57,292 bases of DNA, filler included, from Jimgerdemannia flammicorona (GCA_003990765.1; 3 parts of 3 records of this genome joined end to end with filler, not necessarily neighbours in it), one strand, 5' to 3'; positions 16,311-47,200 are shown, numbered from the whole stretch's first letter. A program made the numbers and translations. Notes: generated by a model not told the origin, from the sequence alone.

Positions 16311-16354
<44 letters not shown>

Positions 16355-19034: not shown

Positions 19035-19134
19035 NNNNNNNNNNNNNNNNNNNNNNNNNNNNNNNNNNNNNNNNNNNNTTAATTAATTAANNNNNNNNNN
19101 NNNNNNNNNNNNNNNNNNNNNNNNNNNNNNNNNN
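19035..19134. other. Scaffold gap (100 nt) with TTAATTAATTAA six-frame-stop spacer
   Basis: N-run with a central TTAATTAATTAA, identical in design to the second gap. Confidence 0.98.
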
Positions 19135-23300: not shown

Positions 23301-23440
23301 AGCTACTATAAACTCAATATGATACTAATACTATTATCATAATTGTTTTAATCATCAGATTAAAACAATAATTGCTAAACCAACTACTACTAATACTATT
23401 ATATCTGAGATTGTAAGAATCTACTTCAAGTCTATATACT
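20310..23440 (+). mobile_element. Degenerate Ty3/gypsy internal region: zinc knuckle - dUTPase - protease - RT - RNase H - partial integrase
   Basis: Zinc-knuckle remnant about 20470-20525. dUTPase about 20600-21012 (VSTGIIVQCSEGYY, IIDPDYQE*VQVLL, ELSETKQDEKDFDNTD). Protease VLIDSRAIGN about 21090. RT VLFVKKKN, YFTKLDL..Y, IYLNNVLIF (cf. YLDDILI). RNase H TTNILNFTIRAVL, YKKEL. Integrase AGLLQLLSI. Many stops. Confidence 0.9.
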
Positions 23441-26200
23441 ATTGATCAAATACTAAATATTATATAATATCTTAGTAGAGGTATCCTAATGTTCAAAGTT
23501 AACTTAGTAAATATCTTCTACTATATTCTGATATATTAGAGAATTAGAAACTACTAAGCTTTTACTAGTATAGTTTTATCTATTTTAACTAATTTCTTCT
23601 CTTTAAACTATTTTTATCTCTATTTTTCTTTAATATCTTTAATAATATATAGCTTTTTAAATATTATAGTCTAAATATTATTATTTAGTATATATATTGA
23701 TGATATCTTTAAGGTCTACTATTTATATTAAGCTGAATACTACTCTATCTTCTTCTTTCTATCTGCTATACTATTAGATTTTTAGTATAAGATAATAAAG
23801 TTAACATTCTCTCTATCTGTCTTTTGGTTTTAAATATTGAGATCAATATATCAATTATAGAGACATATTTTTCTAAGAGTAAGATCTTATCTATTCTTAT
23901 AACAATTACTAGCCTTATCTCTTAGTTAATCATAATTTAGATAACTACTACCAAATAAGAAATATTTTCTCTTATTAGATTTCTTCTCTTTACTTGTAGA
24001 TTATTCTACATATAAGACCAATCTTTTCTTTATCATTTTGTCAATATTTCATCTTCTGTCTCTTATTCTGATCACTATATTAACTTGATTACTAATTTTA
24101 TTACTAACTTATATTAGCAGTTATAATTTCTCATATTATAGAATAGAGTTATAAATATTGCTCTAGAGGAAGAGGTTATCAATAATCAGTTTTAGACTAA
24201 TACTAGTAGCATCTATAACTTTGTAATATTTTTCAATAGAGTATAGTTCTCTATCTTTTAGTTTATAGATTTTCTTCTCAAAGATATCTAATTTAAATAA
24301 TTATATACTATTATCTTTACTATGGCTATTTGAGATCTCTATTGATAGTTCTGTTATATTAATATCTATATTGACAATTAGACTATAATGTTCTGCATCA
24401 ACTCTAATATCTTTATAATCTGAATCTCCTTAAACTCCTTTACCGCCTTCTCTTTCTAGAGATTTTATACTTGTTATAAATATAGATATCATTTATTCTC
24501 TCTTATTTCAATACTATTACTAATATATTATCTCATCTTGATCTCTTATATATAGTTTTACTCTCTCATCTTTTATATTGATCAGACTTCAATAATATTA
24601 GACTCTCTTTCTATCTCTATAGTCTTCTGCTCCTTATTGCATTCTTCCTATAGTTCAGTCTAACAGACTTTATATATTAATTATATTTAACTGACTAATG
24701 TAACTTTCATGAATTCTATACTATTAGTAATCTCTATAACTGAGATAGTTCTATTCTACCAGCTTCTAAATAATATCTCAATCAGTAAGTATATACTTTG
24801 ACTCTATAATATCTCTACCTAGCTACTATTAAATTATACCCATCTACTATTTACTTGCTTTATATCAATGCCAGCCTTCCAGATCCTTTAGAAGACTTGC
24901 TTTAGCTTCTGTAAGTTCTTCAGAACATCAAATATTAGATTAAAGGATCAACTCTATAATTATACCTCTCTATCTCTATCTCTATATTATTACAAATTTT
25001 TTTTCTCTTGAATATTACTACTAAAAACCATCTCAATTTTGCAGTGATCATTATATTGATATATTATAAATTTCTTCATTCTGATAAATTCATATAGAGA
25101 CTAATGATATTTGAGTCTAATATCAATCTCTCTCAAATTTACCTCTAATTCATTTTAATTCAAAATATTCTAATTAAATTAAGAGTTAATTTGATTTGAT
25201 TCAATTTGAATTGAGGCTCAATTCAATTCAATTCAAATTAATTATGGTCTAATTTAATTTAAAGTTTAATTTGAATCTAATTTTTTCAAAATTCAAAGCT
25301 TTATCAAAATATATTTAAATATAATAAATTTTTACTTATTTATTATATCTTATAATAGAGAATTTAGTATATATAATAAAGAATATTAAATTTGGACATA
25401 TTTTTATTGAGTTATTATATTTTTAATTAGAAATAAATATTTCAAATCAATTAGACCTTAATTTAATTTAAATTCAATTCAATTCAAATTTGATTCAAAT
25501 TCAAAAATCTCAAATTTAATTTGATTTAATTCAAATTGATTTGATTCAAATTGATTTGATTTATTTGGGAGTATTAATATAGTTTATATCTTTAGTATAT
25601 AATTCTATCTATATTATATTAGTCATTCCTTCCTCTAAAATAGACCCTTTTTACAAAGAAACTACTCTTTATATTACTATAGCATCTCATATACTATTCT
25701 CCTTCTCTAAGCCCTCTTTTTCTTCTTTTTTATCTCTCTTATCTTATTCTCTACTCTCTTGAGCATAGTTTCTTTTAGATCTATGATCTCTTTTTATAGT
25801 TATCAGGCTTCAAGCATCTACCTTTACCAGATATAACTTTTATATTAGAGCTATTTCTGATGCTATTGAGGCTAGATTTTCAGACTATGAGATTAAAATT
25901 CTTGAGTAATAATCTAGTGATATCTAATAACTATATATTTGAATGTCTATCTCTTATATCCTCTTCTTGATGATGATACTGACCTCTCATAATATGACTA
26001 GATATACTATGTGATCATATAAATTACCACCATCACATCAGCTATCTATATAGAAACTTTTACTATAATTACTTACATAGGATCTGCTTTTATACTACGT
26101 TTCAAGATTGTAAGACAGTGAAGTTTCCAATACTATAGTTTGGTATACCCATGATACAAAATCCTATAACTATGATAACCTGAGTCCTGTGACTGTAATA
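23440..26200. mobile_element. Highly AT-shifted relic TE sequence, class unresolved; ATTCAA/TTTGAA arrays at about 25100-25560
   Basis: Essentially CpG-free and TpA-rich. The ATTCAA arrays look like C>T-mutated versions of the TTCGAAT arrays at 18680-18720. Confidence 0.55.
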
Positions 26201-29280: not shown

Positions 29281-29319
29281 TGAATTACATTTGTGATTAG
29301 CGATATGATATCGTCACCG

Positions 29320-30300
29320 GTCCTCGACCTCATTACAAACAACTACGTCCATGACGAATTTAGCATGCGCTCCAAGATCATCAACTACCTCCGCCACTTC
29401 CTCGACAACCTTTTTTTCCTTGAGGTCGACATGCCAATGATGAACCAGCTGGCAGGAGGCGCCGCCGCTAAACCCTTCATCACCCTCAAGCTCGACCTCT
29501 TCATGGACGTCGCGCTGGAGCTCTTTCTCAAGATGCCCGTCATTGACAGCCTCGATCTTGGCTATGATATCGGACGCCAGTTCAGGAATGAAGGAATCGA
29601 CCTCACCCACAACTCCGAGTTCACCACTGGTAAGTTTTCATGGCCTACGTAGACATCCACGACAAGGTCACGTACCATCCGCAAGGACCAGAGGGACCCG
29701 CCATGGACACCAACTTCATACCCTCATTCTACAAGGTCAATATGATGGGAAAGCTGGGCGTCAAGTTTCCACTGGACGATCAGATGCATACTGATGAGAC
29801 CAAAAATTCTTCTCTGATCTATGTATCAAGAATAATGTCGAGTGCAGCGTACCAAGGACAAACGTGCAGTTGAGGACAAGTAACATTTATTTCTTCAAAT
29901 TTATCTTTTTACAACCAATTGTGCAACTTAAAACTCATACCCAACTCAACCATCCCGTTTTCCCTTTAGCTCGTCGAAGAATACACCGAAGTGGATTGCG
30001 TCAGCCCGACCTTCATAATGGGACACCCGCAGATGATGTCTCTCGGTCTGTGCGAGCGGTTCAAGTGCTTCGTCGCCACCAAGGAGATCACCAACGCTTA
30101 CACTGAACAGAATGACCCCTTCGACCAGCAGGAGATGTTCGCCCAGCAGGCCGCCGATAAGGCCGCGAGCGATGATGAGACGCAGCTCTTGATGGGAACT
30201 TTTGTCAGAGCCTTGAGTATGGTTTACCTACCCATTGGAGGGTGGGTAATGGAGATTTATAGGTTGACAATGTTCTTGATAAATTTGGCGAATATCAAGG
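29320..30300 (+). pseudogene. KRS1: Class II lysyl-tRNA synthetase pseudogene (catalytic-domain fragment)
   Basis: [88 protein letters not shown], and GGW..IYRL.MFL..NIK. Frameshifts and deletions of conserved blocks. An intron-like segment is retained at about 29870-29969. No anticodon-binding domain seen. Confidence 0.92.
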
Positions 30301-31828
30301 CACGTTTGTTTGTTTTGTTCTGGCATATGGAAAAACGGTTAGTGCAGGAAATTGGTCATGGATAGAGCACACCATACCCCTTCCCGTAATTCCACGGATT
30401 GTACAGCCTCTGCCTCTATCTTCAGTAATCTCTGGTCACCAAAAGATATCACACGGAAGCAGTTCTGCCTGGGTGGATGAAAGCAAACCAAGTGGAGGTT
30501 AATGAATCATAAAATAAAATATCGCATTGAACAAATAAACTGTTATCAAGCCACCCGAACACTGTATCACAACGAACCTTCGGGCTCTCGCGTAATACCT
30601 TGAGCAATAGCGACGGATTTCATCGCGGAACTATGGTATTTTCGGGCATAATTGTGCAAGCTTGGCAAGCTATATGGCAAAGGCAGGGTATTTTCGCAAA
30701 TGCTTCCTTCTCCGATAACCCGTACCCTCTATTAACTGCCACCCGTATATGTATAAACCGTAAATGATAATCGATTGGATGAGGATATGTTTGTTGTGTA
30801 TTTGGGCGAATGCGTGCATGAGGAATATTTCTATCTCGAATGCGTTGCATCGGTCAGTTCCAAGAACCCGACATACATAAGGTGTATATACGAACCAGGG
30901 AGGTAGGTGGGAGTGAAAAACCGTATGGAAGACGATTGAGCGTAAAAGGATGACAAGATGTTGGTCGTACAATGAATTTGATAATTGAATGATATATATA
31001 CGTATATTATTTCCTAATCGAGTAAACGTGTCTTTAACGCGCTATCCCTTCGGGATCCCTTTATCTTTCTCGTAGGCTTGTTGTTTAGCACGTGATTGTT
31101 GCGAAAGCGTTTAAGGGGCACGTGTCTCAAAAAATTGGCGTGTCCCAAATCGAGGCTTCGTGGAACGATAATCTTCTACGCAGGATGAGACCGCTAGAAA
31201 TACATCTCGGGCGGGCCGAAGGAAGTACATACGGACTCCCCATATAGTGTAGTATTTTAGTAATGAGATTAGTATAAATAAGGATGTATAGGGTTGCAAA
31301 TAAAGGGCAGTCTAAATCTGTAAGCAGCGTACATTCAGAACGGGTGCATTCAAGCAGGGATCGGATATCCTAGGAATCCTCGTATATATGACAGGTCGCT
31401 TTTCGTGTTCCTCCAGTGGTCCTAAGACGCATTTCATAATCACATAGATCCAACAATTTTCGCACCCTTTATTATCTGCAGATGGTACACCGAAAAGGCA
31501 ATCGGGCCTGTGTCAGAAGCATTGATCTGCTACAAGACTCGTACAAGTCCGTCAATCATGCCCGTCTAGCCCCGGTGTCACTGAATAACTGAATATTCAT
31601 CTCAATAGCTCAATAGTCGTAGCATCGGGTCCATAGTGACTGACACGACATTCATCCGCCCAACGTTGAAACGTGTCACAAGATTTCGAGGTAACAACAG
31701 AACGTCTGAAAGAGGAAACCTGAAAGGAGACCAGATACCTTCTTCGTATGCTGACAATTTCTGGGAAATATTATTGGTTGATAATTCTTCAGAAACATTA
31801 TCCGTATACACCTCTACCTTCATCCCCC

Positions 31829-34800
31829 ATGTCCTCCAACGAACTTCCAACCCCTTCACTTGACGAAATCAAGTCCTGGGATGAACACGGAGTCTGTGAG
31901 CACTTTCGACACCCTCTTCTCCGATTGAAACCCGACCATATAGCCATCTTGCGTGCTCAGGAAACAGATGGAGAGGCACTCATTTTACTCACCAAAAATG
32001 ACCTATTGAGACTACCATATAATTTACCAAGAGGGCCCGTGAAGAAAATTATGAACGAGATTTCCCGATTGAAAAGTGACTATCGTAGAGGGTCATAAAT
32101 ATATCGACGGTCGAGAACATTTTAATGCATTCGCTGGCTGAAACGAGAATATTGCTTTTTTTGATCTCACCAGGAACAGGCTGTCAACAAACATCTACGG
32201 CTACGGAAGGTGTGCGATTTTTCATTTATTGTCTCGACGCAACATACAACTATGTCATCCGGGATCATATTAGAACATGCCTTTCTAACTATTTGGCAGC
32301 CATTTCGCGAAGCACCTATGAAGAACGAATTAAGAACGTTAAAATCGAAATTGAACTGGTGACAAAGAATATCAAATCGACGGCCGACAAGAAAGAGAAA
32401 GATCGACTTTGCAAAGAACGATCAGGACTTCGCGAAAAAGAGCGCCTATCCCTCGCGCTCCAGCTACAAGGTAAGAGGATTATATGTAGTTAGTTTATTT
32501 CAGAAAATTCACCGAAATCCCGCGAGCTTTTGTGGTGACTAATATATACTTTCTCATCCTAGCTCCATCTTCTAATCTGGTGTCGGTTAGTAGTAGTCGA
32601 CATTTTGTGTTGTCGGATTCGCTTGATACAATGTTACCAAACTGTCTTGATCCCCCATTTTTTTTTTGTTTTCTACATATATATAGATCATACAAGACAT
32701 AAAGAACGAAATGGGTGACATAAAGATCGACACTAAAAGTATCCTCAGCAACCTCGACGAACTTCACGACAAGGTTGACAGTCTCCCCAAGCTTATGCTT
32801 GATCTTCATGAAGATACATTCCCCCGACTCTTCTTCATCTTTCCCGAAGATGGTCATTGGTGGGAGCCATCGATTGACAACCTCTTCACGAAAAAATTCC
32901 GTCTATACTTTCTCTGCGAACACGAAACCGTCGAAAACGGCAGCACGAAGAAACAGTTCCATCTGGCATTTCATGACGGCTACCCTGTCGTCCAACCACG
33001 CGAGGTATACTATTTTGATGGTCGATGTGGCATACGCTCCAGCTATCACAATACGGTTGCTAAATGGATCTCTACTTTAGTTTGTAGCTAAATATGGGCC
33101 ATACATACGTATGGTATGTCGTTTTTCTGAGCTTGAGCATCCGCACTCTCTGTGCAGGTTATCTAACATTTCCCTTGCAAAACAGATCATGCCCTGTCTA
33201 ATTCTGGCCGTACTCTTGGGAGGGCGCCTATTGGAATGCGTGCCTGCAGTCGGGAAAGCGGCAGCAGAGGTCCTACGGGCTGGCGGTGACCTTCCTTCAG
33301 TATCAGAATCTGCGATGTTTACTGACCGCGAACTTGAGTTCTGCGCGCAGACTGAGAAGGTTTTTATAACGGTTGTCTCTAACCTCGAGGCTACTGACAA
33401 CCAGGTCAAGAGATACACCGCCGATACTCCATCGTTGGTTCAGCCTCAGGGAAGAGCGCCAGGACTGATAGAAAGACCTGATCTGCGTGGACTCCAAGGT
33501 GCAGCGATACATTGATTTTTCTGTTCAAGTGTTCATGCGCCAATTTTTATATATATTTATTCACGATTTCTTTTGAAATTTTGGTTAATAGCTTATCTTG
33601 AAGGCTTGGATAACGCCAATCGGCTTGGGAATCTGCAGCGCGTGCTTCGTCCTGGGGAAAACGGTAGAGTGGCTGTGCGATGGGTGTGCAAGAATCACGC
33701 CGCGGAATGGCAGACGACAAGCGCTCTTCAGAGTCTTCATACAGTCATCGACAGCAGTTCCATAGATGGCAATGTCACGTTGGATGACGAGACTTGGGAG
33801 CTGACGTTCGTATCATTTACCTAACTTTAAAATACAACACGTGCCTTTAAATCTGCGATGTTTTCGTACTCAATGCTGATTTATTTCAATATCAGACTAA
33901 GGGGATTATCAAGAGGATATTTGCATACATTTCGAAATTCGGTATCGCGTGCGCTGTCTAGTGTCCCTTTGCGAAAAATCTGGTAATTAGTTTTGACTTT
34001 CACCTTTCTTTGTTTGTCTAGAATGATTAATGAGGAATCAAATTACAGTTTTGTAGCTTGTGAAAAGGCTCATTCAGCAGATATAGAAGTTCTTATTACC
34101 ACTGTGACCACCCTTGAAAATCTTATGTAAGTTATTTATTAATATCTTTATTTGATAAACTTAATGTAATAATAGATAATATATATCTTACTATTTAAAT
34201 ACTTATTTAGACTAAAGCAAATGAAGAATATACAGTATGATTACTTTTTATTGATTTTTTTTATTTAATAGTAATAATCTTTATAATTATATTTATTAAT
34301 ATAAAATCAACTTTATCTATCTATAGCATAAAAAATATTATTCAAAAATGTCTTACACTTAGAGAATTCGAATTTACAGGTACATCATAACAATCACAAC
34401 ATTTTTGTGCAGTAATCACATCTTACATTGAAGACTTTCATCTAGAGAAATTTTATATGAGCTTGGAAGAAGCTGTCTAAAGAGAATAATTATAGTGGAT
34501 GAAGTTGTGCAAATGAAGATAAACCTTCAATACTTGAAAACATATAAAAATTAAACTACATCTTTTTATCATTTTCTAACTATCAGCTCTATGTAACTTT
34601 TTTTTGTTTGTCTCTATAGATAGCCACATCAATGATGAGGGAGCCAGTGCAATAGCTGAAGCACTGAAAACGAACAAGAGTCTGAAAAACTTGGATCTAT
34701 GCGGTACGTAGGAATGGCGCGCGTTACATTGGTTTTTTTTTTTTTTGTTATTGCATTCATCTGTTCAGCGTTTGAGCTGATAGCAGCTGCACATGCATTT

Positions 34801-37800
34801 TACGTATTCCTTCCTACGTAGGGAATGGCATCGGTAGTCAGGGAGCCAGCGCACTAGCTGAAGCACTGAAAATGAACACTAACCTGCAAACCCTGGATCT
34901 ATGCAGTGTGTATAATGAAGCACATTATATGATTGCACTCAGCTGTTTCGTATTCCAGCTGATAGCCGCGCGTTGTATTCCACATGTTCCTCGGTAGGAA
35001 ATCGCGTTGGCGATCAGGGAGCCAGCATACTAGCCGAAGTACTGAAAACGAATACGAGCCTGCAAACCCTGAACCTACAAGGTATGTAGAAATGAAGCAC
35101 GTTAAATTTCCTGCATTGATTTGTTTAGCATTCCAGCTGGCAACCACGTATATGCATTGCATATATTTCTCCATAGGCAATCGCATTGGTGAGAAGGGAA
35201 CCAGTGCACTAGCTGTAGCCCTGAAAACGAACACGAGCCTGCAAACGTTGGATCTAAAATGTAAGAATGAAGTGCATTGCATTTTTGATTCACCTGTTAG
35301 TGTTCTGGATGACAGCCACCAATATACCTTTATGAGTTTCTCCGCAGACAACAACATTGGCGCAAATGGAGCGATTGTACTAGCCGAAGCAATGATAACG
35401 ACCAGAAGCCTGCAAAACCTGGATCTATCTGGCATGTAGAACTGAAGCACGTTACAACCCGGCATTCATCTGTTTAATATATCGGCTGACATCCACGATA
35501 TGAATTTCCGTAGGCAAGAGCATTTGCGATCAAGGAGCCCGCGCACTAGCTGAAGCACTGAAAACGAAGACGAGCTTGCAAAACCTGGATCTAACATGTA
35601 GGAATGAAGCGCATCACAATTTTTTTTTTTTTTTTTTTTTTGGCATTCATCCGCCAAGTGTTCTAGCTAACAGCCATGCATATAAATTCGCGTGTTCCTC
35701 AATAGACAATAGCATCGGCGATCTGGGAGCCAGCGCACTAGCCGAGGCGCTGAAAACGAACACGATCCTGCAAAACCTGTATCTACGTGGTATGCAGGAA
35801 TGATGCTCGTTACAACATTTTTTGATTCGTCCGTTTAGTGTTCCGGCTGACAGCCGCGCGTATGCATATATTTCGTGCGTTCCTCTGTAGGGAATGGCAT
35901 TGGCGTTAAGGGAGTCAGCGCACTAGCCGAAGCATTGGCAATGAACACAAACCTGCAAACCCTAGATCTACGCAGTATGAAGAATGAAGCGTATTATATT
36001 TTTGTATTTCATTTTTTTGATGTTGTAGCTGAAACGCCCGCGTATACACGCAATTTGTTCCTCTGTAGACAATGGTATTTGCGAGAAGGGAGCCAGCGCA
36101 CTAGGCGAAGCACTGACAACGAACATGAGCTTACAAAATCTGGATCTATGCGGTATATAGGAATGCAGCGCGTTACGTTTTGAATTCATATATCTAGTGT
36201 TCTTGCTGAAAACTATGGATGGGCACGCATTTTATGTGTTCCTCTGTAGAGAATGGTATTGGCGAGGAAGGAGCCATCGCGCTAGCCGACGCGCTGAAAA
36301 CGAATACGGCCCTGCAAGACCTGAACTTATATTGTACGTAGGAAGCATTTTTAGTGTTCGTCTGTTTAGTGTTCTGACAACCACGCGCGTACATCCCATG
36401 CATTTCTTTGTAGTAAACGGTGTCGGCAGGAAGGGAGCCGTCGCTCTAGCCGACGCGCTGAAAACTAACACGGCCCTGCAAAACCTGAACTTAGTCGGTA
36501 CGTAGGAACGAAGCACGTCGCAATTTTTTGCGTTCATCTGTTTAGTGTTCCTACTGACAACTACGCGCGTACATCCCATGCGTTCCTCTGTAGACAACGG
36601 CGTCGGCGAGAAGGGAGCCGTCGCACTAGCCGACGCGCTGAAAACGAACATGGCTCTGCAAAACCTGAACCTAGAAAGTACGTAGGAACGAAGCGCGTCT
36701 TTTTTTTTTTTTCGATCATCTTTTTAGTGTTCCAGCTGACAACCACGTGGGTACATCCCGTGCGTTCCTCTGAAGACAACCGTGTCGGCAATAAGGGAGC
36801 CGTTGCACTAGCCGACGCGCTGAAAACGAATACGGCCCTGCAAAACCTGAACCTAGAATGTACGTAGGAACAAAGTGCGTCGCATCTTTTTGCGTTCATC
36901 TGTTTAGTGTTCTGGCTGACAACCACCCGCCTACATCCGTGCGTTCCTCCGTAGACAACGGGGTCGGTGAGAAGGGAGCCGTTGCACTAGCTGATGCGCT
37001 GAAAACGAACACGGTCATGCAAAACTTGAACCTATACTGTACGTAGGAGCGAAACGCGTCGCATTATTTTGCGTTCATTTTTTTGCTGACAACCACGCGC
37101 GTATACATCTCGTGCGTTCCTCCCTAGTGAACGGTGTTGGCGATACGGGAGCCGTCGCACTAGCTGACGGGCTGAAAACGAACACGGCCCTGCAAAACCT
37201 GAACCTAGAATGTACGTAGGAACGAAGCGCGTCGCATGTTTTTGCGTTCATCTGTTTAGTGTTCCGGCTGACAGCCACACGCGTATATACATTCCGTGCG
37301 TTCCTCTGTAGTGAACAGGGTCGGCGATAATGGAGCCGTTGCACTAGCCGACGCTTTGAAAAAGAACACGGCCCTGCAAAACCTGAACCTACATTGTACG
37401 TAGGAATGAAGTGCGTCACATTTCCCTGTGTCTATCTGTTTAGTGTCCCTGCTGACAACCACACACGTATATCCCGTGCGTTCCTGTGTAGCCAACAGTG
37501 TCGGCGATTCGGGAGCCGTCGCACTAGCCTGCGCGCTGAAAATTAACACGGCCCTTCAAAACCTGAACCTATATTGTACGTAGGAACGAAGCACGTCATA
37601 TTATTTTTGCTTTCATCTGTTTAGTGTTCCGGCTGACAACCACACGCGTACATCCCATGCGCTCTTTGTAGTGAACGGTGTCGGCGAGAAGGGAGCCGTC
37701 GCACTAGCCGACGCGCTTAAAATGAACATAACCCTGCAAAACTTGAACCTAGTCGGTACGTAGGAACGAAGCACGTCGCATTTTTTTTTATTTTATTTTA

Positions 37801-38126
37801 TTTTTTTTTGCGTTCATCTGTTTAGTGTTCCAGTTGACAACCACGCACGCACATCCTCTGTAGCCAACAGTGTCGGCGAGAAGGGAGCTGTCGCACTAGC
37901 CGACGCGCTGAAAACAAACATGGCCCTACGAAACCTGAACCTATATTGTACGTAGGAACGAAGTGCGTCGTATTTTTTTGCGTTCATCTGTTTAGTGTTC
38001 CGGCTGAAAATCACGCGCGTACATCCCATGCGTTCCCTGTAGCCAACAGTGTCGGCGAGAAGGGAGCCGTCGCACTAGCCGACGCGCTGAAAACGAACAC
38101 AGCCCTGCAAAACCTGGACCTAGAAA
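31829..38126 (+). CDS. SAM - coiled coil - COR-like - RI-class LRR protein (3' end lost in the gap)
   Basis: SAM domain 31829-32075 (IKSWDEHGVCEHF…LRAQETDGEALILLTKNDL…LPRGPVKKI). Coiled-coil exon 32300-32470. PRLFFIFP…FRLYFLCEH…HLAFHDGY..VQPREFVAKYGPYI and LRGLQAYL…LGNLQRV…WVCKNH resemble the C-terminal COR region of ROCO-like proteins. Followed by 20 LRR exons. Small exons between about 33800 and 34600 are only partly resolved. Confidence 0.85.
34620..38126 (+). repeat. Tandem array of 20 exon+intron units (about 165-200 bp); each exon 84 nt = one 28-aa LRR, phase 1-1
   Basis: Exons: 34620-34703, 34822-34905, 34998-35081, 35177-35260, 35348-35431, 35514-35597, 35706-35789, 35891-35974, 36069-36152, 36250-36333, 36414-36497, 36594-36677, 36776-36859, 36955-37038, 37128-37211, 37312-37395, 37492-37575, 37672-37755, 37864-37947, 38043-38126. 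Consensus xNx(I/V)GxxGAxALA(E/D)ALKTNTxLQxL(D/N)Lx. No stops or indels. Introns share a CTGAC/CTGAT-type branch point. Confidence 0.97.
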
Positions 38127-38166
38127 GTACGTAGGAACGAAGCGCCTCCCATTCTTTTTTTTTTTT

Positions 38167-38266
38167 NNNNNNNNNNNNNNNNNNNNNNNNNNNNNNNNNN
38201 NNNNNNNNNNTTAATTAATTAANNNNNNNNNNNNNNNNNNNNNNNNNNNNNNNNNNNNNNNNNNNN
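38167..38266. other. Scaffold gap (100 nt, true size unknown) with TTAATTAATTAA spacer
   Basis: N-run. The genes on both sides are truncated at it. Confidence 0.98.
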
Positions 38267-38368
38267 TTTTTTGACTCGAGCCATTCATTTTCTTATAGAA
38301 TGCGGTTATAATCGTAATTTGCCATTGCTCATCGGTACATTCAACCTTTCTCACACGTTGCCCGACAG

Positions 38369-41300
38369 ATTTACTTGAGCGAACACGCTTGGCGGGATCT
38401 CGAGGATAATTTACGAAATCAAGATAAGGACGAGCAGCGACGTGCTAAAGAAGAGAGAAAGAACGGAGACGGTACAGCAGCGCAGCCATCACTCTTAGAC
38501 CTTCAGTCATCACGACCGGGCTCCAATTTGCTTGTTCCGCCCATGGTTCCTGGCGGACCGTACGGCGATGAGCAACGCTCATTCTATTCCGAGGATGCGC
38601 GCTCTTTCTATTCCGAGGATGAATATTATCAAGAGGATCACTATAGTGGTGGTTACAATGATACAGAGTCCGCATATGGGTCAGAGGTGTTTGCACCCTC
38701 CGGAAGTACATTTCGCGAGCTGGAGATGCGTAAAATGCTCAACGGGGATTCGAAGGGTGATGGCGTGGAGGAAGAACCCGAGATACCACGCAAAACCACT
38801 CGCGGTCGCAAGCAATGGGTGGCCCTTACCTGGTTCTTAACCTGGTGGATCCCAGGTCCTTTCTTACGATGGTGTGGCGGTATGAAACGCCCTGACGTGC
38901 GAATGGCATGGCGTGAGAAGGTTGCACTTTGCTTTGTCATTTTGGCGCTCTCGGGAGTCGTTATCTTCTTTATCGCCGTCTTCGGAAAACTCATCTGCCC
39001 CTACCAAAACGTGTTTTCGTGGAACGAGCTTCAAGCCCACGACAAGAAAGATTATGCTTACACCGCCATCCGTGGCGAGGTGTTCGACCTTACCAATCTA
39101 GTGCCCGGGCACTGGCCTAATGAAGTCATTTCGACGAGCGCCCTTTTTGCGTACGCAGGCAAGGATTCCACCGTTCTATTCCCAATCCAGGTATCAGCAC
39201 TATGCGACGGTACCACGGGTTCGGTCGATGACGCGGTGACCCTTGACACCCATGTAAACCTGACAGATCCGAACGCCGCCTATCACGACTTCCGATATTT
39301 CACCTCCGATTACCGCCCCGACTGGTACTGGAACCAAATGGTGAAGATGCGCAAATTGTATCGCATTGGATTCATGGGTTACGACCCTAAAGACCTCCAG
39401 AACCAGGCCAAGACCAATATGGCGTCTAGTGGTATTTCAAACCCCAGCTGGGCTATATTGAACAATGACATATACGATCTCTCTGCTTACCTCGCGGGTG
39501 GCCTCATTCCTCGTGTCCCTACTGGTCAACAAGTTCCCGCTAATCTCAACATGAATTTTATGGATTCGCGAATCGTTGACCTTTTCAAAACATTCCCCTA
39601 TCAGGACATCACCAAGAGCTTCGAGGCGCTTAACCTTGATTCTATCCTCAAGGAGCGTCAACTTGTCTGCCTTCGTAATCTATTTTTCATTGGCAAAACA
39701 GACAATCGCAATTCGACCGTTTGCCAATTTTCGACATATTTGCTCCTCATTATATCAGTCATGTTATGCGCCGTCATCTTGTTCAAGTTTCTCGCAGCTC
39801 TACAACTCGGCGGACGTCGCGAACCCGAGGAGTACGACAAATTCATCATTTGTCAAGTACCTTGCTATACCGAAAGCGAGGAATCTCTCCGCAAGACCAT
39901 CGATTCACTCTCCGTGCTGCGCTATGATGACAAGCGAAAGCTGCTATTCCTCATTGCCGACGGCATGCTTATTGGTAGTGGCAATGATCGACCTACCCCC
40001 CGTATCGTCTTGGATATCTTGGGCGTAGACCCCAACGTCGATCCTGAACCTCTCAGCTTCGAATCACTTGGCGATGGCATGGCGCAACACAATATGGCCA
40101 AGGTGTACTCAGGCTTGTATGAATGCTCTGGTCACGTTGTTCCCTACATCGTCGTTGTCAAGGTCGGCAAACCCACCGAGCGCCAAAAACCGGGCAACCG
40201 AGGCAAGCGTGATTCTCAGATGATCTTGATGCGATTCCTCAACAAGGTGCATTTCAATAGTGAGATGACCCCGATGGAACTGGAGATTTTCCACCAGATC
40301 AAAAATGTCATCGGCGTTAATCCGAGTTTCTATGAATTTGTTCTCATGGTGGACGCCGATACGGAGATCATGCCCGATTCACTCAACCGTATGGTCTCGT
40401 GCTTCGTGCACGATGCGAAAATCATTGGCTTGTGTGGCGAGACCATGATTTCCAACGAAAAAGATACCTGGGTGACCATGATTCAAGTCTACGAGTATTA
40501 TATCTCGCATCATCTCGCGAAAGCGTTCGAATCACTTTTCGGCTCCGTCACCTGTTTGCCTGGGTGTTTCTGCATGTACCGGATCCGCTCCGCGACCAAG
40601 AACCAGCCGTTGCTCATCAGCAACCAGATGATCCAGGACTACTCGGAGAATATTGTTGAGACGCTACATATGAAGAATCTGTTGCATCTTGGCGAGGATC
40701 GCTATCTCACAACCTTGATCCTCAAGCATTTCCCGAACTATAAAACCAAGTTCACCCCTGATGCAGCTTGCAAGACGAATGCCCCCGATCGCTGGCCCGT
40801 CCTTTTGTCGCAACGCCGCCGTTGGATCAACTCAACCGTCCACAATCTTCTGGAGTTGATGTTTTTGCCGCAACTCTGTGGTTTCTGCTGCTTCTCGATG
40901 CGTTTTGTCGTCATTCTGGATCTTCTCGGTACCCTGGTGATGCCCGCCATCGTGGTCTACCTCGGCTTTCTCATCTACAGTATCGCCGTCTCCCCGACCG
41001 CAATCCCGTTTTGGTCTGTTATTACTCTCGCGGGTGTATATGGCCTGCAGGCGCTCATTTTTATCATCCGTCGAAAGTGGGAGCATGTTGGCTGGATGAT
41101 TGTTTATCTCCTCGCGATTCCCGTTTTCTCCTTTGCGATTCCGCTCTACTCCTTCTGGCATTTCGATGATTTCTCGTGGGGTAACACTCGTGTGGTCGTT
41201 GGCGAAAAAGGCAAGAAATTACACTTGGCGTCAGATGAGGGCAAGTTTGATCCTAAATCCATCCCCCGGAAGAAGTGGACTGACTACGAGCAAGAGCTCT

Positions 41301-41968
41301 GGGAAGTGGGCTCGCACGAATCTCACGACTCCCGTGGCACAGCGCACACCGGCTATACACATGAATCCTATCGTAGCCACCGGAGTCTTGCACCCGCCGG
41401 CGCTGGTCCTGGCTCAACTGCTGGTTCTATCTACAATGACGCCGCGAGCTATTACAGCGGCAATGGAGGAAACAGTGGCCGCTCCCGCTCCAGGTCTCCC
41501 GCACCAATGGCGGCATACGACAACCAGAGCATCCGCCAGCAATCTTTCACGAACGTACCGATAGTTTCGGACCCTCGCATGTCCCGACCGTATTCGGACA
41601 TGATGTCGCAACGCGGCTCGGTGTTCATGAACCGCACGCCTTCGGAGATTGACCTTGCATATGCTAACATGCCGCCGGGCATGGGAGGTGGTTCGCGAGC
41701 CGGAAGTATGATGCCCCCTGGCGGATCTGTCATGGACGCATATTATGCATCGGGACCTGGGTCGTCGGCTTCCGGTGACGGGGCGATCTTGCCAACGGAC
41801 GAAGAAATATTGCAGGAGATTCGACGCATTTTGTCGACATCAGATCTCATGTCGATCACAAAGAAACAGGTTCGCGATGAGCTGTCTGCGTTCTTCGGTG
41901 TAGATATGAGCTCGCGCAGAGAGTTTGTCAATTCGTGCATAGAGCAGGTGTTGCAGGGAAAGCTCTGA
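38369..41968 (+). CDS. Chitin synthase, class V/VII (myosin-motor type), terminal exon
   Basis: Acceptor CAG|ATT at 38368/38369. IYLSEHAWRDLEDNLR resembles the end of the myosin-like domain. Also present: AWREK, cytochrome b5-like region, VPCYTES, PGNRGKRDSQ, VDADT, TCLPGCF, LGEDRYLT, SQRRRWINST and C-terminal DEK_C (EIRRILSTSDLMSITKKQVRDEL). Confidence 0.97.
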   Translation: MYLSEHAWRDLEDNLRNQDKDEQRRAKEERKNGDGTAAQPSLLDLQSSRPGSNLLVPPMVPGGPYGDEQRSFYSEDARSFYSEDEYYQEDHYSGGYNDTESAYGSEVFAPSGSTFRELEMRKMLNGDSKGDGVEEEPEIPRKTTRGRKQWVALTWFLTWWIPGPFLRWCGGMKRPDVRMAWREKVALCFVILALSGVVIFFIAVFGKLICPYQNVFSWNELQAHDKKDYAYTAIRGEVFDLTNLVPGHWPNEVISTSALFAYAGKDSTVLFPIQVSALCDGTTGSVDDAVTLDTHVNLTDPNAAYHDFRYFTSDYRPDWYWNQMVKMRKLYRIGFMGYDPKDLQNQAKTNMASSGISNPSWAILNNDIYDLSAYLAGGLIPRVPTGQQVPANLNMNFMDSRIVDLFKTFPYQDITKSFEALNLDSILKERQLVCLRNLFFIGKTDNRNSTVCQFSTYLLLIISVMLCAVILFKFLAALQLGGRREPEEYDKFIICQVPCYTESEESLRKTIDSLSVLRYDDKRKLLFLIADGMLIGSGNDRPTPRIVLDILGVDPNVDPEPLSFESLGDGMAQHNMAKVYSGLYECSGHVVPYIVVVKVGKPTERQKPGNRGKRDSQMILMRFLNKVHFNSEMTPMELEIFHQIKNVIGVNPSFYEFVLMVDADTEIMPDSLNRMVSCFVHDAKIIGLCGETMISNEKDTWVTMIQVYEYYISHHLAKAFESLFGSVTCLPGCFCMYRIRSATKNQPLLISNQMIQDYSENIVETLHMKNLLHLGEDRYLTTLILKHFPNYKTKFTPDAACKTNAPDRWPVLLSQRRRWINSTVHNLLELMFLPQLCGFCCFSMRFVVILDLLGTLVMPAIVVYLGFLIYSIAVSPTAIPFWSVITLAGVYGLQALIFIIRRKWEHVGWMIVYLLAIPVFSFAIPLYSFWHFDDFSWGNTRVVVGEKGKKLHLASDEGKFDPKSIPRKKWTDYEQELWEVGSHESHDSRGTAHTGYTHESYRSHRSLAPAGAGPGSTAGSIYNDAASYYSGNGGNSGRSRSRSPAPMAAYDNQSIRQQSFTNVPIVSDPRMSRPYSDMMSQRGSVFMNRTPSEIDLAYANMPPGMGGGSRAGSMMPPGGSVMDAYYASGPGSSASGDGAILPTDEEILQEIRRILSTSDLMSITKKQVRDELSAFFGVDMSSRREFVNSCIEQVLQGKL

Positions 41969-42499
41969 AAAACGAGAGTGGATGTTGAGAATTTGATGTT
42001 AAAATCTTACATATAGAGTTTCTGTATTTCTCTTTTCTTTTCTCAGTTCATCGCATCTAGTGTCAATGTTGTCAGGTATCTTGACAGCCCGATATTCAAT
42101 AATTGTATAGCTCGAGGAGAAGGGCACTCATCTGCCAATCCCAATAAAGTAAACAATTTTGGGGCCTTTATGATTACACTATCTGTTCTCACCATTTTAT
42201 TTCCAGATGTCCGCGCCTGTCATTTAGACAGCGGCCGCTGCTGGAAGTGAGCCGACTACACCAAGGACACGAGGATTTGGTTCTCAATGATAATCACGCT
42301 GCCCAACAATTATGTCCAACTTCTTTCGCCCCAGTCGAAATGGAGTCACTGGCTTTAGTTGATCTAATTTAAAATCAAAATACAAACATGAATTCACTCA
42401 TCACCATAAAAATAAAAATACTATACCTAATAAAATGAATTTCTGTTTCTTTTGGGTGTATCAAAAATCGCTTTTTTGATGTCAGTGGTGTTATGGAAG

Positions 42500-44285
42500 G
42501 TTGATATAAGTCTAGCAGAGATTCATTGTCTGCAACTAAGCAGATGATATTGGCAATAATAGTCTGTGGGAAATAAAGTGTTATTTATTCAAAGTTATGC
42601 AAATAACCTCTGAAATTCCTACTTCAGTATGAGAGAGAGACCTCAGTCATTTACATTCTTAGTAATTCAGTATGTTGTATAAAATATATTGTGTAGAATA
42701 CTTTATATAGAATACTTTATATAAAATTATAGCATATGTAATATAATGTACTAGCTCAATAGAGGCAAATTACAAGGTTGGGGCTGTTATATATGTAGAT
42801 TGACTTTGGCCCCTAGTTACTTTGTCAAAAAGTAATAAAATGTTCAATGGTTTCTGGTGCAAGTTTAGATAGTACATAATACAGATGATTTTTGTAGGGT
42901 TTCCTAATTAGGTAGAATCAGCAGACTTCTCAGTTAATGTAGATTTATTACTGAATACAGGTTCTACATAATATGGTAGAATTCTCACATTCTTCAAGAT
43001 TGGCAGTTTCTCAAATGATATAAATGATAACAATTCTCAAAATAGTAACAAGATTCTTCACTTAAACTTTGGCAGATAATTCAGACTTTGTCTAGTAAGT
43101 AGATCAAAAATAGCAGAGTTCTCAAATTTAGGCTTAATCTGATAAGTAGACCAAATAACCATGACAGACTTCTTGAATTCATGAGCTTCTCTTGATAAAG
43201 TTACATTGATCAACTACTTTATTTATATAAACAGATTTACTATAAAGATATATCTAATTGACTGACTTAGATAAGAGATAGTGGTAGACTTTAAGTTCAA
43301 AATAGCAGTATTCTTAAATTTTTCTAACTTAGTCTAGCAAGTATACTAAATCAGATCTTCTCTTCTTTATATGAAAAAGTAGACTGAAGTAAAATCAGAT
43401 ATCAAGTTCTCTTGCTTGTATTGTAAATTTTAGACTGAGATTTATTCACTTTTATCACTAGAGTATTTTATATAGTTGTGATTACTATCTGATTACTATA
43501 TTACTAATTATAAGATATATATGTAGATATATATTATTCTAATTTAATATATCTGTTATTTATATTAGTAGTATATATAGAGATAACTATATGAAATAAC
43601 TATACTGAGTAATTTATACATCATTTAACTATATTACATATAATATTTACTTATTATATTAGCTCTTACTAAAGAATAGTCTATCCTTAGACTGTTATTT
43701 GGTTATTATTCCAATATCTATAAGTATCTTTGATATCTATTCCTATACTATTATTTCCTTCTATATCTGAGTTGCTCTATTTAAGAGACTCTTCTTCTTT
43801 TTTAGAGAATAGTACTTCAATACTGCTAATAATAAACTAATAGATAACTATATTCATTCATTATATATATATCAGTAAGACTAAATTGAGCATGGATAAG
43901 TATAGAGAGATTTCTTTTATATATAGTATATAATCTATCTGCAGTAATGATATTTACTTAGATTATACTAGTAAAATTCCTAATATAGATATGGTCAGAT
44001 ATAGAGAGGTCTTGTAACTATTATCTGATTATATATTATACTTATAGTTAGTAAATTTGTAGTAATTATTGAGTAATAGTGAGGTTCTCCAGAAGTATTC
44101 AGACTTATTGGACATAGTTCTCTTAAACTTCTTAGTATATTAGTAATAGAACTAGAAGGATCTAGAGAGAGCTAGAGATAAGAATCTGAAGGTACTGATC
44201 AATTCTCTAATTTATTGTATTGAGAGAAGATATATCTTCAGTACTTTCTCCAGTATTATTTAGGTTATACAACCTTTGGAAAGCA
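42500..44285. mobile_element. AT-rich, CpG-free relic TE sequence (class unresolved)
   Basis: Abrupt loss of CpG after about 42470 and high TpA. No readable motif. Confidence 0.5.
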
Positions 44286-44289
44286 CTTA

Positions 44290-47200
44290 CAATATCATTT
44301 TTGGAGAAAAGAGACTAGCAATATAGTGACTGACAGGCAACCTGAGGTGTGTACTGGGCAGGGTGGTCTGAGTGTATTTGATTGGCAGTATGTGGAGAGG
44401 GGCCCTGGCCTCAAGGGAAGTATGAGGGATCTACTAGCAGGAGGATACAGAAGAGGAGAAAGCAGTGGTAGAGGACAGAAGTCAGGGAGAGTGAGCTTTG
44501 TGGAGATGGTAAAGAGGAGACAGTAGACATCTAGACTGGAGAGCTGGCTGAGAAAAGATAAGGAGATGGAGAAGACAGCAGTACATAGAGAAGTAGTCCT
44601 TGGTGGTGGGGGCAGTAGAGCTGGGGGTGTAGTGGCTGGGGTGAGCATGATGGCTGATGGTGACAGAACTGCCAATCTGAAAAAAAATCCAGATATGACT
44701 GCTGATGGTAGGGCTGAGGATGGAACTTGGACAGCAAGGAGATTTGGCAGATAGTGTGATGGACTTAGTAGTGGCCCTGTTACTCAAGAAGTCAATCTTG
44801 GAGTTTGTAGTTACTTTGTACTTCTGGAGCCTAGCAGTGATGGCAAAAATGGTACTGGGGCTAATTGCTAAGCAGGTGGCTAGAGCAGTATCAGTGAAGT
44901 TTCTGAAGAGATTGAAGGAAGTGGAGGTAGACTTTGAAGAGGCTGGGCCTTTGGAGGAGGTGCTGAAGGCTGAACTGACTATTGGAGAGATATGTATTCT
45001 GATGGCACATTGCCTGAGATAGAACTCTAGGGTAGTGCAACTGCTGGTGAAAGGAGTGCCCACAGTGATGGTAGCAGAGACAAGGAGGAGAGTCAAGGAG
45101 ATCATAGCTGAGTATGAGAAGGTGATGAATGTTGGATTCAGAGTTTGGGAGGGGACCTCATTCAGAACTGAAGATGTTAATATCAGAATTTGGTTGGCAG
45201 AGAAGGAAGCTACTAGAAAGGCAAGAGATTGGCCTTTAGTAATGGTCTAGAGAGCAATCTTGTATAAGGTGACAAGGGTGAAGAGGAGTGAGAAGAAGGA
45301 AGAGGACTTATTAGAAGTGCTGGAAGAGCTGAGTGGTATAGTGGAGCAGTAAGCAAAGACTTGGAAGGCTTTTGTAGAGTCAACACATTTGGAGGTAGTA
45401 GATGGAAAGCAGAATTGAGTAGACAAGGGGCAGTGAGAAAGGGTCTAGGGATGTAAGAGGCAGAAGGAGCTGCTGGCTAAATTAGAGAGTAGACCACAGA
45501 AGGATACAGGTGGAATTGAGAAGGTGGGGGGTGCCAAAGCAAGTATCTGAGCTGATGAGGGTGGAGGGATTGGGGGAAAGAGGACAGGAGAGGATAGAGA
45601 GGTAACTGGTAATAATCTATATGTGGATGGAATGTTTGAGGTCTGGGAGGAGACCTGGGAGGACTTACCTACTCCTACCCCTCTTATCAAGTGAGGTCTG
45701 GCTTCTCAAAGCAGAGTGGTAGAGAATGTACTCATGTGGGGGGCCTAGTGAGTACAATTTGGAGTTCCAGAGATAGCAAAAGGGGGACAAGTGGTGGCAG
45801 TTGGAGAGGAGGAACTTATGGTTGTCCTAGAGGTGTGGGATGAGTCTGCAAGTACAGGGGCCAATACCACAATACTGGGTGGAGAGAGGCCAGCAACTCC
45901 AGGGGGGAAGGAGGTGGGGAACCTACTTTGAATATGTAGGATGATGAATAACTTGGCAGCTGAAGAGTTGGGGGAGGTGGATCTTAGAGTAATGAGCAAT
46001 GAGTATTGGGCATGGATCTTGCAGGGGGATGGAGTGGTGATAGCATTGAAGGTGGAAATTCTTGCAGTATATCTGAAGGAAGGGTATGAGGTAGATAAGG
46101 AGAGAGAGGTGGAGCTGGCAAGTGTTGCTGGTGAGAGGGCCAACTACTGCTGGACTAAGCATCATGGATTATAGCTCTGGCAGGAGATCTGTCTGGAATA
46201 TCAGAAAGAGTTTGAGAAGAAGGTAGATGGGAAGATGAATGAGCTGTTGGCTGAATTGGAGGCTAAGAGGGCTGAAGAGGAGGAGGAGTCTGCAGAATAC
46301 AATCTGAATATGGTATAGGAAGCAATGAGCATAGAGCAGTAGAGAATGAACTTGATAATATATAGTATTTCCTTATGAATAGTACAACTACCATTTTTTC
46401 TTTGAATGTAAATGGGTTATGAGACTCTTTTGATATAGGAACATTTTTACTTGGCTGAAGAGATTGAAGGCCAATCTCTTCCTTTTACAGAATGTCAGGT
46501 GTAAGGATGATTTAGATAGGCTGGAATGGACAAAGGAATAGAGAGGTGAGGCAGTTTGGAAGAGTAAGATTGGAATTCTGATCCAGAGAGATAGAGGGAA
46601 GATATACAATATGAGGAGCTGGGAGAGATAGATTGGTCTGGGGAGAGTGAATATGTACAGATTGGGAGCTAGTTACAGTGGATTCTTGCTACTGCCCTGC
46701 TGTACAGAGTGAGTATATAGATTGGGTAAAGGGTCTCTAGGAGAGTAGAGCCCTTGCAGAGACTAGGGTGGATATGCTTAGTGGAGACTTCAATATGGTC
46801 TGAGATATGCTGGTGGATAGAATCAATAGAGGATGGGGAGCTGAGGACAGAAGTGGAGGGCTGGTAGTATGGGAGGAAGTAGAAAGACTAAGTGCTCTGG
46901 TAGATGCTGGCAGGGAGTATTGGGGTGATAGGAGAGTATACATATATTGAGCAGGGGGCCTGGAGATAAGGATTGACTGAATTTTGATGACAAGCTGCTG
47001 GGGTTTAGATATCTGGAAGTTGCTGGAGGTGGAGTGGTGTCTATGGTCAGATTATTGGGAGCTTTTAAGATAGGGACATTTTGGGGAAAGTGAGGATGGG
47101 CCTGGACATTGGTACTGCAATTCCTCTTTATTAGATGATAGAGTATTGTGGGATAAGTGGGCTGAGGATATTCAATAGAGGGTAGAGGGCTGGAGACAGA

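Follow-up and report, generated by a model that had tools for sequence, protein, structure and literature searches.

A 57,292-nucleotide (nt) stretch of DNA from Jimgerdemannia flammicorona (GCA_003990765.1), referred to here as the window, contains an array of 20 consecutive short exons that each encode one leucine-rich repeat (LRR), and whole exon-intron units of this array have been amplified in tandem. The reading that we favor, at a probability of about 0.65, is that the array is the C-terminal, sensor-type part of a large Mucoromycota gene, that it grew by tandem duplication of units, and that its introns are spliced constitutively. A first-pass annotation of the window had proposed a diversifying receptor whose binding surface is reassembled by exon skipping, by unequal recombination, or by both.

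Structure and origin of the LRR exon array

We read positions 33800-39200 for AG / 84 nt / GT-or-GC segments that are open in the right frame. The scan identified an array at 34620-38126 on the plus strand that consists of 20 consecutive exons, as the first-pass annotation had described (Table 1). Each is exactly 84 nt long and in phase 1-1, such that its first two bases complete a codon and its last base is left over. None of the 20 contains a stop or an indel, all 20 have an AG acceptor, and 19 have a GT donor, the exception being exon 5, which has a GC donor. The exons had also been said to be separated by short homologous introns, and the 19 complete introns (80-118 nt) can all be aligned with one another. 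A search of both strands of the window with an nhmmer profile of the exon returned exactly these 20 copies (E ≤ 3.5e-18) and no further LRR exon, extra or inverted, inside the introns. The next match (34500-34538, plus strand; E 0.14) lies inside the AT-rich intron before array exon 1 and is either a decayed repeat or due to chance.

The limits assigned to the array needed some adjustment at both ends. The start at 34620 holds for the 84-nt exons, but the LRR domain itself would begin earlier, in a 53-nt exon (34327-34379) that is predicted to encode the first β-strand. At the other end, the gap into which the array was said to run (38167-38266) is an artificial contig joint, because an identical construct recurs at 19035-19134. 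The presence of two identical joints means that the window strings together three or more contigs and that neighborhood across the joints is no evidence of linkage. Because the contig breaks off within the array, in the poly-T of intron 20, the figure of 20 repeats is a lower bound.

The 20 translated exons have the consensus N-x-V-G-x-K-G-A-V-A-L-A-D-A-L-K-T-N-T-x-L-Q-N-L-N-L-x, in which G7, L24, and L26 are invariant and N1, A8, A10, L11, A12, A14, L15, N18, L21, and Q22 are at least 90% conserved. Each of the 20 repeats is 28 residues long (27 codons plus the junction codon), which fits the 28-29 residues of the ribonuclease-inhibitor (RI) class, and the repeats follow the class consensus of LxxLxLxx(N/C)xL and a helix of small and aliphatic residues (as the motif is given in the excerpted text of PMC6642158). 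The repeats are thus predicted to be 28-residue LRRs of the RI/NOD class. When the exon profile was compared with the PDB, the best match was the LRR domain of rabbit NOD2 (E 2.6e-12), and the 16 distinct sequences matched at E ≤ 0.01 included axonemal RI-like proteins, LRRC34, RanGAP1, and tropomodulin. Among 1.84 billion representative proteins, the profile matched 15385 at E ≤ 1e-3 and 581 at E ≤ 1e-30; Pfam identified LRR_6 in all of the best 26 of these 15385 matches that were scanned, and NACHT in 10 of the 26. Single exons are too short for Pfam: of three submitted, one matched LRR_6 at 15.8 bits (cut-off 23.4) and two had no match. A read-through query that comprised exon 4, the open intron 4, and exon 5 gave three matches, to fish NLRC3, among 119 word-sharing candidates.

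The degree of divergence between units indicates how the array arose. In units 10-19, identity is 76-91% between introns and 75-89% between exons; with exon 20 included, the exon range is 75-92%, and at the protein level repeats 10-20 are 74-89% identical to repeat 12. Within units 1-9 the corresponding values are 57-77% for introns and 64-85% for exons. Because the introns are about as similar as the exons, the copied unit must be an exon together with an intron, some 180 nt in length. Tandem Repeats Finder reported the same ~180-nt period at 36348-38159 (10.0 copies, 79% matches), as well as a two-unit period of 371 nt at the 3′ end of the array. Whole exon-intron units have been amplified in tandem, and the array consists of an older, diverged block (units 1-9) and, 3′ of it, a young, homogeneous block (units 10-20).

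The closest relatives of the window repeats are in three Jimgerdemannia (Endogonales) proteins, P0006, P0102, and P0118, in all of which LRR_6 was found above the cut-off; P0118 also carries an F-box. P0006 has the same order as the window, with one old-type repeat followed by young-type repeats, and it contains translated intron sequence at the same repeat position as the introns of the window. The young repeats of the window have V at position 9 in 10 of 11 cases and A at position 20 in 9 of 11, whereas in P0006 the corresponding residues are I (10 of 11) and G (8 of 11). Private residues that extend across an array point to concerted evolution or to separate recent amplifications, and both imply unequal exchange between units. 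The recombination part of the first-pass proposal is therefore well supported, and is the best reading of the intron homology and the array-specific residues. We propose that unequal crossing-over or gene conversion between misaligned units made the young block grow and keeps it homogeneous, in which case repeat number and order would vary between alleles and paralogues rather than between transcripts.

An alternative is that the units are real and their number or order is wrong, due to the collapse or misjoining of ~180-nt repeats during assembly. In favor of this are the break of the contig at a poly-T within the array, the artificial linkers by which the contigs of the window are strung together, and an identity between young units of up to 92%. 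However, every unit differs from every other, and the 8-25% of positions at which pairs of units differ suffice for anchoring reads. Furthermore, the ordered split into old and young blocks and the two-unit period at the 3′ end look biological, and the old-then-young order recurs in P0006. We regard a partial artefact of this kind as unlikely.

The predicted gene and its protein family

We propose that the array is the 3′ part of one gene, the product of which would comprise a SAM domain, a coiled coil, an unnamed middle domain, and at least 20 LRRs. A model of this gene built by hand (31829-38126) has 28 exons and a coding sequence of 3382 nt that specifies 1127 residues without a stop; apart from the GC donor of array exon 5, all of its introns are GT-AG. 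The open reading frame (ORF) at 31724-32098 matched the Pfam families SAM_1 (E 3.1e-5; 24.7 bits, cut-off 23) and SAM_2 (E 7.5e-5). A match of the coiled-coil ORF to EAD9 (E 0.017) was below the cut-off and was not used. The middle domain was recognized by comparison with P0013 (KAF9565977.1), a Mortierella alpina protein that surfaced in the exon-profile search. Window ORF 32687-33091 aligned with P0013 residues 249-358 (BLASTP E 1e-16; family profile E 1.4e-21), with the tblastn high-scoring segment pairs stopping at 33010, and window ORF 33516-33824 aligned with residues 452-504 (BLASTP E 3e-6; profile E 1.2e-7 in the model). The domains of P0013 and the upstream ORFs of the window are in the same order.

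P0102 (RUS28106.1, from J. flammicorona) bridges the middle domain and the LRRs: it aligns with 33714-34124, and the two gaps in the alignment fall at short stop-containing segments bounded by GT and AG. The whole model is colinear with a 43-member family profile (E 6.9e-29 for the coiled coil and middle domain, 1.2e-7 for the C-terminal block, and 8.6e-65 for the LRRs). The intron before the 53-nt exon (34127-34326) has a GC content of 0.14.

No NACHT, NB-ARC, or other nucleoside triphosphatase (NTPase) domain was found at E ≤ 0.1 when the five upstream ORFs were compared with Pfam, and the same ORFs had no match to a ROC-COR GTPase. Because its upstream part lacks NACHT and NB-ARC, the gene appears not to encode a NOD-like receptor (NLR). 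This is in keeping with the first-pass annotation, which had noted that fungal NLRs usually have WD40, ANK, or TPR repeats rather than LRRs as sensors (as in the excerpted text of PMC4986451). A protein-atlas lookup was uninformative both for the window ORF, for which phage and unnamed clusters came up with a best score of 0.87, and for the middle domain of P0185, a family member.

Of 3116 candidates in a search with the middle domain of P0013, 1168 matched at E ≤ 1e-3. The 120 family matches listed are nearly all from Mortierellomycotina (Mortierella, Linnemannia, Podila, Benniella, Dissophora, and relatives), and 'RNI-like protein' is a frequent name among them. The middle domain would place the gene in this large and apparently undescribed family. 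A word-index search with the middle-domain ORF of the window found nothing among 43 candidates, although the family exists. Pfam had no match to the middle domain in the window ORFs or in the family members scanned, and in P0013 and P0185 it matched LRR families only. Several positions that are invariant in the family (a His, Gly-Tyr, Tyr-Gly, and a Trp/Cys/His set) are kept in the window protein, which is probably a divergent member. The Mortierellomycotina 'RNI-like proteins', such as KAF9565977.1, share with the window the order of coiled coil, middle domain, and RI-type LRR array, and are 33-37% identical to it in the middle domain; most of them have a small β-rich N-terminal domain, whereas the window has SAM instead.

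An AlphaFold model of P0185 made from the 43-sequence alignment was confident in the small N-terminal β domain, the coiled coil, and the LRR half. The predicted local distance difference test score was about 85-95 in the LRRs and 30-60 in the middle domain. The Foldseek matches of the model, to NOD2, ribonuclease inhibitor, and NLRP chains (E 1e-10 to 2e-7), relate to the LRR half, and we assign no fold to the middle domain.

Other members of the family showed features of their own. P0183 (M. alpina, 1839 residues) has ARM_5 and NACHT ahead of the middle domain and an LRR_6 array. It may be a merged gene model; if it is not, it is a fungal NACHT-LRR protein, an architecture that is reported as absent in surveys of fungal NLRs (PMC4986451, excerpted text). 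A TIR_2 match in P0186 was below the cut-off and lay inside the LRRs, and we rejected it. Adjacent locus tags occur among the M. alpina matches, and in the metagenome set two loci shared one contig on two occasions (L002/L021 and L045/L054), so the family tends to occur in local clusters. Of 66 related metagenome loci, the six that we examined, which are Mortierellaceae-like, are uninterrupted ORFs of 771-1105 residues with irregular LRRs and no canonical repeats, and the exon profile had almost no matches in any of the 66. Because the six loci are uninterrupted and irregular, the exon-per-repeat layout may be specific to the Endogonales branch.

Table 1. Coordinates of the LRR gene and of the contig joint that follows it, in window positions
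Feature	Position	Strand	Basis
Predicted exon 1: ATG and SAM domain	31829..32075	+	Splice choice by hand
Predicted exon 2: coiled coil	32174..32470	+	HOOK E 6.6e-4, below cut-off; family profile from position 247
Predicted exon 3: end of coiled coil and N-terminal block of middle domain	32697..33004	+	BLASTP to P0013; family profile
Predicted exon 4: central, poorly conserved middle domain	33081..33498	+	Weak profile continuation, hmm 401-412; alignment spans exon 3/4 joint
Predicted exon 5: C-terminal block of middle domain, W-V-C..H motif	33592..33805	+	BLASTP to P0013; profile
Predicted exon 6: pre-LRR linker	33896..33982	+	Aligns to P0102; 5′ alignment gap matches an in-frame intron containing stops
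Predicted exon 7: LRR N-terminal cap region	34049..34126	+	Aligns to P0102; second alignment gap matches an intron
Predicted exon 8, 53 nt: first LRR β-strand, phase 1 end	34327..34379	+	Frame continuity with array exon 1; resembles P0006 N-terminus
LRR exon 1	34620..34703	+	Exon scan; nhmmer E 3.5e-18
LRR exon 2	34822..34905	+	Exon scan; nhmmer
LRR exon 3	34998..35081	+	Exon scan; nhmmer
LRR exon 4; following intron 87 nt, in frame, open	35177..35260	+	Exon scan
LRR exon 5; sole GC donor; most divergent repeat	35348..35431	+	Exon scan; identity matrix
LRR exon 6; following intron 108 nt, in frame, open	35514..35597	+	Exon scan
LRR exon 7	35706..35789	+	Exon scan; nhmmer
LRR exon 8	35891..35974	+	Exon scan; nhmmer
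LRR exon 9; last of older, more diverged block	36069..36152	+	Exon scan; identity matrix
LRR exon 10; first of young homogeneous block	36250..36333	+	Exon scan; identity matrix
LRR exon 11	36414..36497	+	Exon scan; identity matrix
LRR exon 12; 92% identical to exon 20	36594..36677	+	Exon scan; identity matrix
LRR exon 13	36776..36859	+	Exon scan; identity matrix
LRR exon 14	36955..37038	+	Exon scan; identity matrix
LRR exon 15	37128..37211	+	Exon scan; identity matrix
LRR exon 16	37312..37395	+	Exon scan; identity matrix
LRR exon 17	37492..37575	+	Exon scan; identity matrix
LRR exon 18	37672..37755	+	Exon scan; identity matrix
LRR exon 19	37864..37947	+	Exon scan; identity matrix
LRR exon 20; last before contig end	38043..38126	+	Exon scan; identity matrix
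19 homologous introns between LRR exons, 80-118 nt	34704..38042	+	Alignment; identity matrix; branch-site scan; inverted repeats
Intron 20, first 40 nt, ending in poly-T at contig end	38127..38166	+	
Artificial contig joint, N44 + TTAATTAATTAA + N44	38167..38266	.	Identical construct at 19035-19134

Variable positions, splicing, and the alternatives

The first-pass annotation had described a nearly constant scaffold in which residues around LxLxxN vary. This holds, and the variation lies at five positions beside the β-strand: the residue after LxL, the junction codon, the x of NxV, and the two x of GxxG. In the model of P0185, these positions map to the β-strand end, the ascending loop, and the first turn of the helix. 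This is the rim at which ribonuclease inhibitor binds its ligands. Equally, the variable positions are just the x positions left open in the RI-class LRR consensus.

We compared rates of nonsynonymous (dN) and synonymous (dS) change at these positions. In units 10-20, dN/dS at the other 23 (scaffold) codons is 0.22, and the scaffold value within the old block is 0.39. For the five variable codons of units 10-20, dN is 0.71, whereas dS over all codons is 0.33 and the intron distance is 0.18. On trees built from exons plus introns, four of the variable codons showed 2.0-5.3 nonsynonymous changes per site, against 1.6-3.5 changes per synonymous site and 0.8-2.6 per intron site, which corresponds to a nonsynonymous/synonymous rate ratio of 1.3-1.6. 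With the four sites specified in advance, P was 0.0004 to 0.04, and with the intron rate as the benchmark it was mostly ≤ 0.04 (in the old block, 0.41 and 0.05 with 27 or 10 codons allowed to be neutral). The excess of nonsynonymous change at exposed positions that the first-pass annotation led one to expect is thus significant with pre-specified sites or with the intron rate, but not when the synonymous rate is combined with site picking, and we regard it as suggestive. Purifying selection would act on the scaffold residues, and the five positions after the strand and at the start of the helix would be free, or driven, to change.

In the young block, the introns (36334-38042) change more slowly than the synonymous sites of exons 10-20 (0.82 versus 1.56 changes per site; 0.18 versus 0.33 in pairwise comparisons). 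Possible causes are constraint on splice signals, a transition bias in the synonymous estimate, and conversion tracts.

The same rates bear on the possibility that the locus is a decaying or silent copy, that is, a recently dead member of a large family with fast turnover, the open exons of which reflect only its youth. Several observations would fit such a copy: the assembly contains only part of the gene, the donor of exon 5 is GC, the array is immediately preceded by two very AT-rich introns (GC content 0.14 and 0.28), the database marks the closest relative as a partial model of low quality, and there is an apparently fragmented lysyl-tRNA synthetase upstream. However, all 20 exons have remained intact while the introns gained indels and stops, and the scaffold dN/dS of 0.22 is low, as is the 0.39 found within the old block. 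A complete, open 28-exon model with canonical GT-AG sites is also difficult to reconcile with decay, and we consider this explanation improbable.

All 19 introns of the array share a donor region, a T-run, a CTGAC-type branch site located ~35-41 nt from the acceptor, and a pyrimidine tract with a TAG acceptor. In 15 of 20 cases the donor region is GTACGTAGG or a near variant, which puts a TAG in frame at the third codon, and 16 of the 20 introns would lead to a stop within five codons if they were retained. Introns 4 (35261-35347, 87 nt) and 6 (35598-35705, 108 nt) are multiples of three and free of stops, and their retention would insert 29 or 36 residues, respectively, without ending translation. 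Intron 8 is open too, but at 94 nt it would shift the frame if retained. As the introns vary in length and mostly carry early stops, the constraint on length and frame is confined to the exons. Constitutive splicing fits these introns because they are short, they have canonical signals, and 16 of 20 stop translation early if retained. We propose that they are ordinary short fungal introns that are removed constitutively, one by one, and that the protein would carry all of the repeats in genomic order.

The alternative set out in the first-pass annotation is a combinatorial receptor, in which the symmetric, near-identical exons would be left out in many different combinations, at random or in a regulated manner, so that one gene gives many LRR surfaces per mycelium. 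Any subset of exons was predicted to keep the frame. The frame is kept, and 188 of the 190 possible exon joints stay open, but the other two (4-10 and 6-10) create a TAG codon. The junction codon is itself variable, so a new neighbor would give a new residue. Introns 10-19 hardly differ in their donor, branch, and acceptor regions, and human NLRP3 provides a precedent for the skipping of an LRR exon (PMC6642158, excerpted text).

The intron ends would offer a means of skipping. The first ~13 nt and the last ~12 nt of the introns are complementary and can form a 10-bp helix, with 92.2% of 167 cells paired, compared with 29-68% when the partner was slid; the helix was derived from the very introns on which the pairing was counted. 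It could bring together the two splice sites of one intron or, in principle, those of different introns, and pairing across several introns is conceivable because the helix is common to all of them: any intron 5′ end can pair with any intron 3′ end, which could loop out exons. Of seven introns that were folded singly, four used the helix. However, the folding z-scores of single introns ranged from -2.6 to +1.2, covariation in the helix was weak (reached by 22 of 500 shuffles), and RNAalifold found no consensus structure in the array introns. Moreover, the introns are short and each has its own branch site, recombination of DNA explains the old-to-young gradient and the array-specific residues without an RNA mechanism, and no sequence feature requires exon skipping. 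In fungi, short introns of this kind are recognized individually, and exons are rarely skipped. We consider combinatorial skipping very unlikely.

We are equally doubtful of the more general idea that the array is a generator of diversity, either through stochastic exon skipping or through nuclei of the coenocytic mycelium that come to differ in the number and order of their repeats by frequent mitotic unequal exchange. If this were true, one locus would produce a population of LRR surfaces, with each new joint giving a new residue at a variable position, and the array would be a fungal counterpart to what has been proposed for the ROCO genes of brown algae. A more distant parallel would be the assembly of lamprey variable lymphocyte receptors.

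A number of points weigh against our preferred interpretation, that of a constitutively spliced gene with an LRR array grown by tandem duplication. The 3′ end of the gene is lost at the contig end, and the array is known as at least 20 repeats, the units of which a short-read assembly may have misordered or collapsed. The upstream splice sites were picked by hand, so that part of the model is a prediction, and the SAM exon is joined to the rest of the gene by frame continuity only. An invariant C-E-C-G stretch in the 43-sequence family alignment lacks its second Cys and its Gly in the window ORF, as judged by eye. Since the middle domain has no Pfam match and a poorly predicted fold, the function of the protein rests on analogy. 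Our statements about the splicing and isoforms of the array, and about expression of the gene, are drawn from genomic sequence, and the GC donor of exon 5 and the open introns 4 and 6 make non-canonical isoforms possible. Finally, when the synonymous rate was used as the benchmark and the top 4 of 27 codons were picked, P was 0.24 for all units, 0.74 for the old block, and 0.97 for the young block, and positive selection is not established.

With low confidence, we suggest that the LRR horseshoe might bind a protein ligand and that the SAM/coiled-coil part might mediate assembly or signaling, by analogy with other LRR proteins that bear an oligomerizing N-terminus. The term 'receptor' is plausible by analogy, on the basis of the architecture.

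Neighboring features and comparison with known systems

Beyond the contig joint, a single ORF of 1216 residues (38318-41968, plus strand) encodes a chitin synthase (Chitin_synth_2, E 3.5e-244) with cytochrome b5-like and DEK_C domains. Because it starts directly after the joint, it may be cut at its 5′ end, and it need not be a neighbor of the LRR gene. On the other side of the LRR gene, the core of a class II (Asp/Lys/Asn-type) tRNA synthetase is present at 29284-30365 (plus strand) as two ORF pieces in different frames (E 3.4e-21 and 8.6e-13), which belong either to a gene with several exons or to a fragment. On the first contig of the window lie a RasGEF ORF (5759-6382, minus strand; E 1.2e-13) and a BTB/POZ ORF (14709-15446, minus strand; E 1.8e-15). 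A region of ~4.5 kb (44000-48500) has an extreme GC skew of +0.42 to +0.52, its plus strand being purine-rich and almost without C; we found no tandem repeat and no long plus-strand ORF in it, and the minus-strand ORF at 44482-45246 had no Pfam match. AT-rich blocks with a GC content of 0.17-0.28 (16000-18000, 21000-26000, and 42000-44000) alternate with stretches of about 0.45-0.52.

Genes with one LRR per exon are already known, as the first-pass annotation had noted, from human NOD/NLRC genes (PMC6642158) and from Ectocarpus ROCO genes (PMC3341825), both cited here from excerpts. In the excerpted text of Hoss et al. (2019; PMC6642158), most human NOD/NLRC genes encode one 28-residue LRR per strictly frame-preserving exon, the exon borders lie at a fixed point of the β-sheet, and NLRP3 skips one LRR exon. 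The animal NOD/NLRC genes and the window thus share one 28-residue RI-class LRR per short, frame-preserving exon, with the border fixed beside the β-strand; in the window, it falls one base after the codon that follows LxL. They differ in that the animal NLRs have NACHT, whereas the window has SAM, a coiled coil, and an unnamed domain instead, and in that the introns of the window are very short and mutually homologous, showing recent duplication of units. A literature search that linked NLRC3, 84-bp exons, and LRRs found no paper.

The Ectocarpus ROCO genes, as described in excerpts of Zambounis et al. (2012; PMC3341825), have 72-nt one-LRR exons, exon shuffling, and positive selection; excerpts of a later article (Front Plant Sci 2024; PMC11378527) also describe one-repeat-per-exon ROCO and NB-ARC-TPR genes in this alga. 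From these excerpts, the ROCO genes resemble the window in their symmetric single-LRR exons of fixed length, their dynamic arrays, and a variable, presumed binding face, and a diversifying receptor has been put forward as a candidate role in both cases. The ROCO exons, however, encode 24 residues of another LRR class in 72 nt and accompany a ROC-COR GTPase, whereas those of the window are 84 nt long and the upstream ORFs had no ROC-COR match. The ROCO introns, again according to the excerpts, hold spare and inverted LRR exons, and those of the window hold none on either strand (nhmmer).

Fungal NLR repeats are not known to be split one per exon and are sited after NACHT or NB-ARC, both of which are absent from the window. 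In the excerpted text of Dyrka et al. (2014; PMC4986451), the WD, ANK, and TPR repeats of fungal NLRs are highly conserved and undergo shuffling, and no LRRs were found. Fungal NLR repeats and the window have in common near-identical repeats within a gene, hypervariable positions, and large lineage-specific families, and the excerpts attribute to the former length polymorphism and concerted evolution by repeat shuffling (PMC4986451). A 2025 survey reports few NLRs in Mucoromycota (PMC12258605). We found no description of a fungal family or layout of this kind in a limited literature collection (supplements excluded).

The locus combines the exon design of the NOD/NLRC and ROCO genes with the evolutionary behavior of fungal NLR repeats, in a fungal protein that lacks an NTPase. 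A Mucoromycota lineage would thus carry a large family of NTPase-less, RI/NOD-type LRR proteins, in the Endogonales branch of which an array has been amplified in place as exon-intron units. If these proteins sense non-self (e.g., endobacteria or plant partners), they would represent an unrecognized arm of fungal recognition and an independent use of exon-modular LRR evolution. It would also be possible to test cleanly at this locus whether symmetric exons can be exploited for isoform diversity in fungi.

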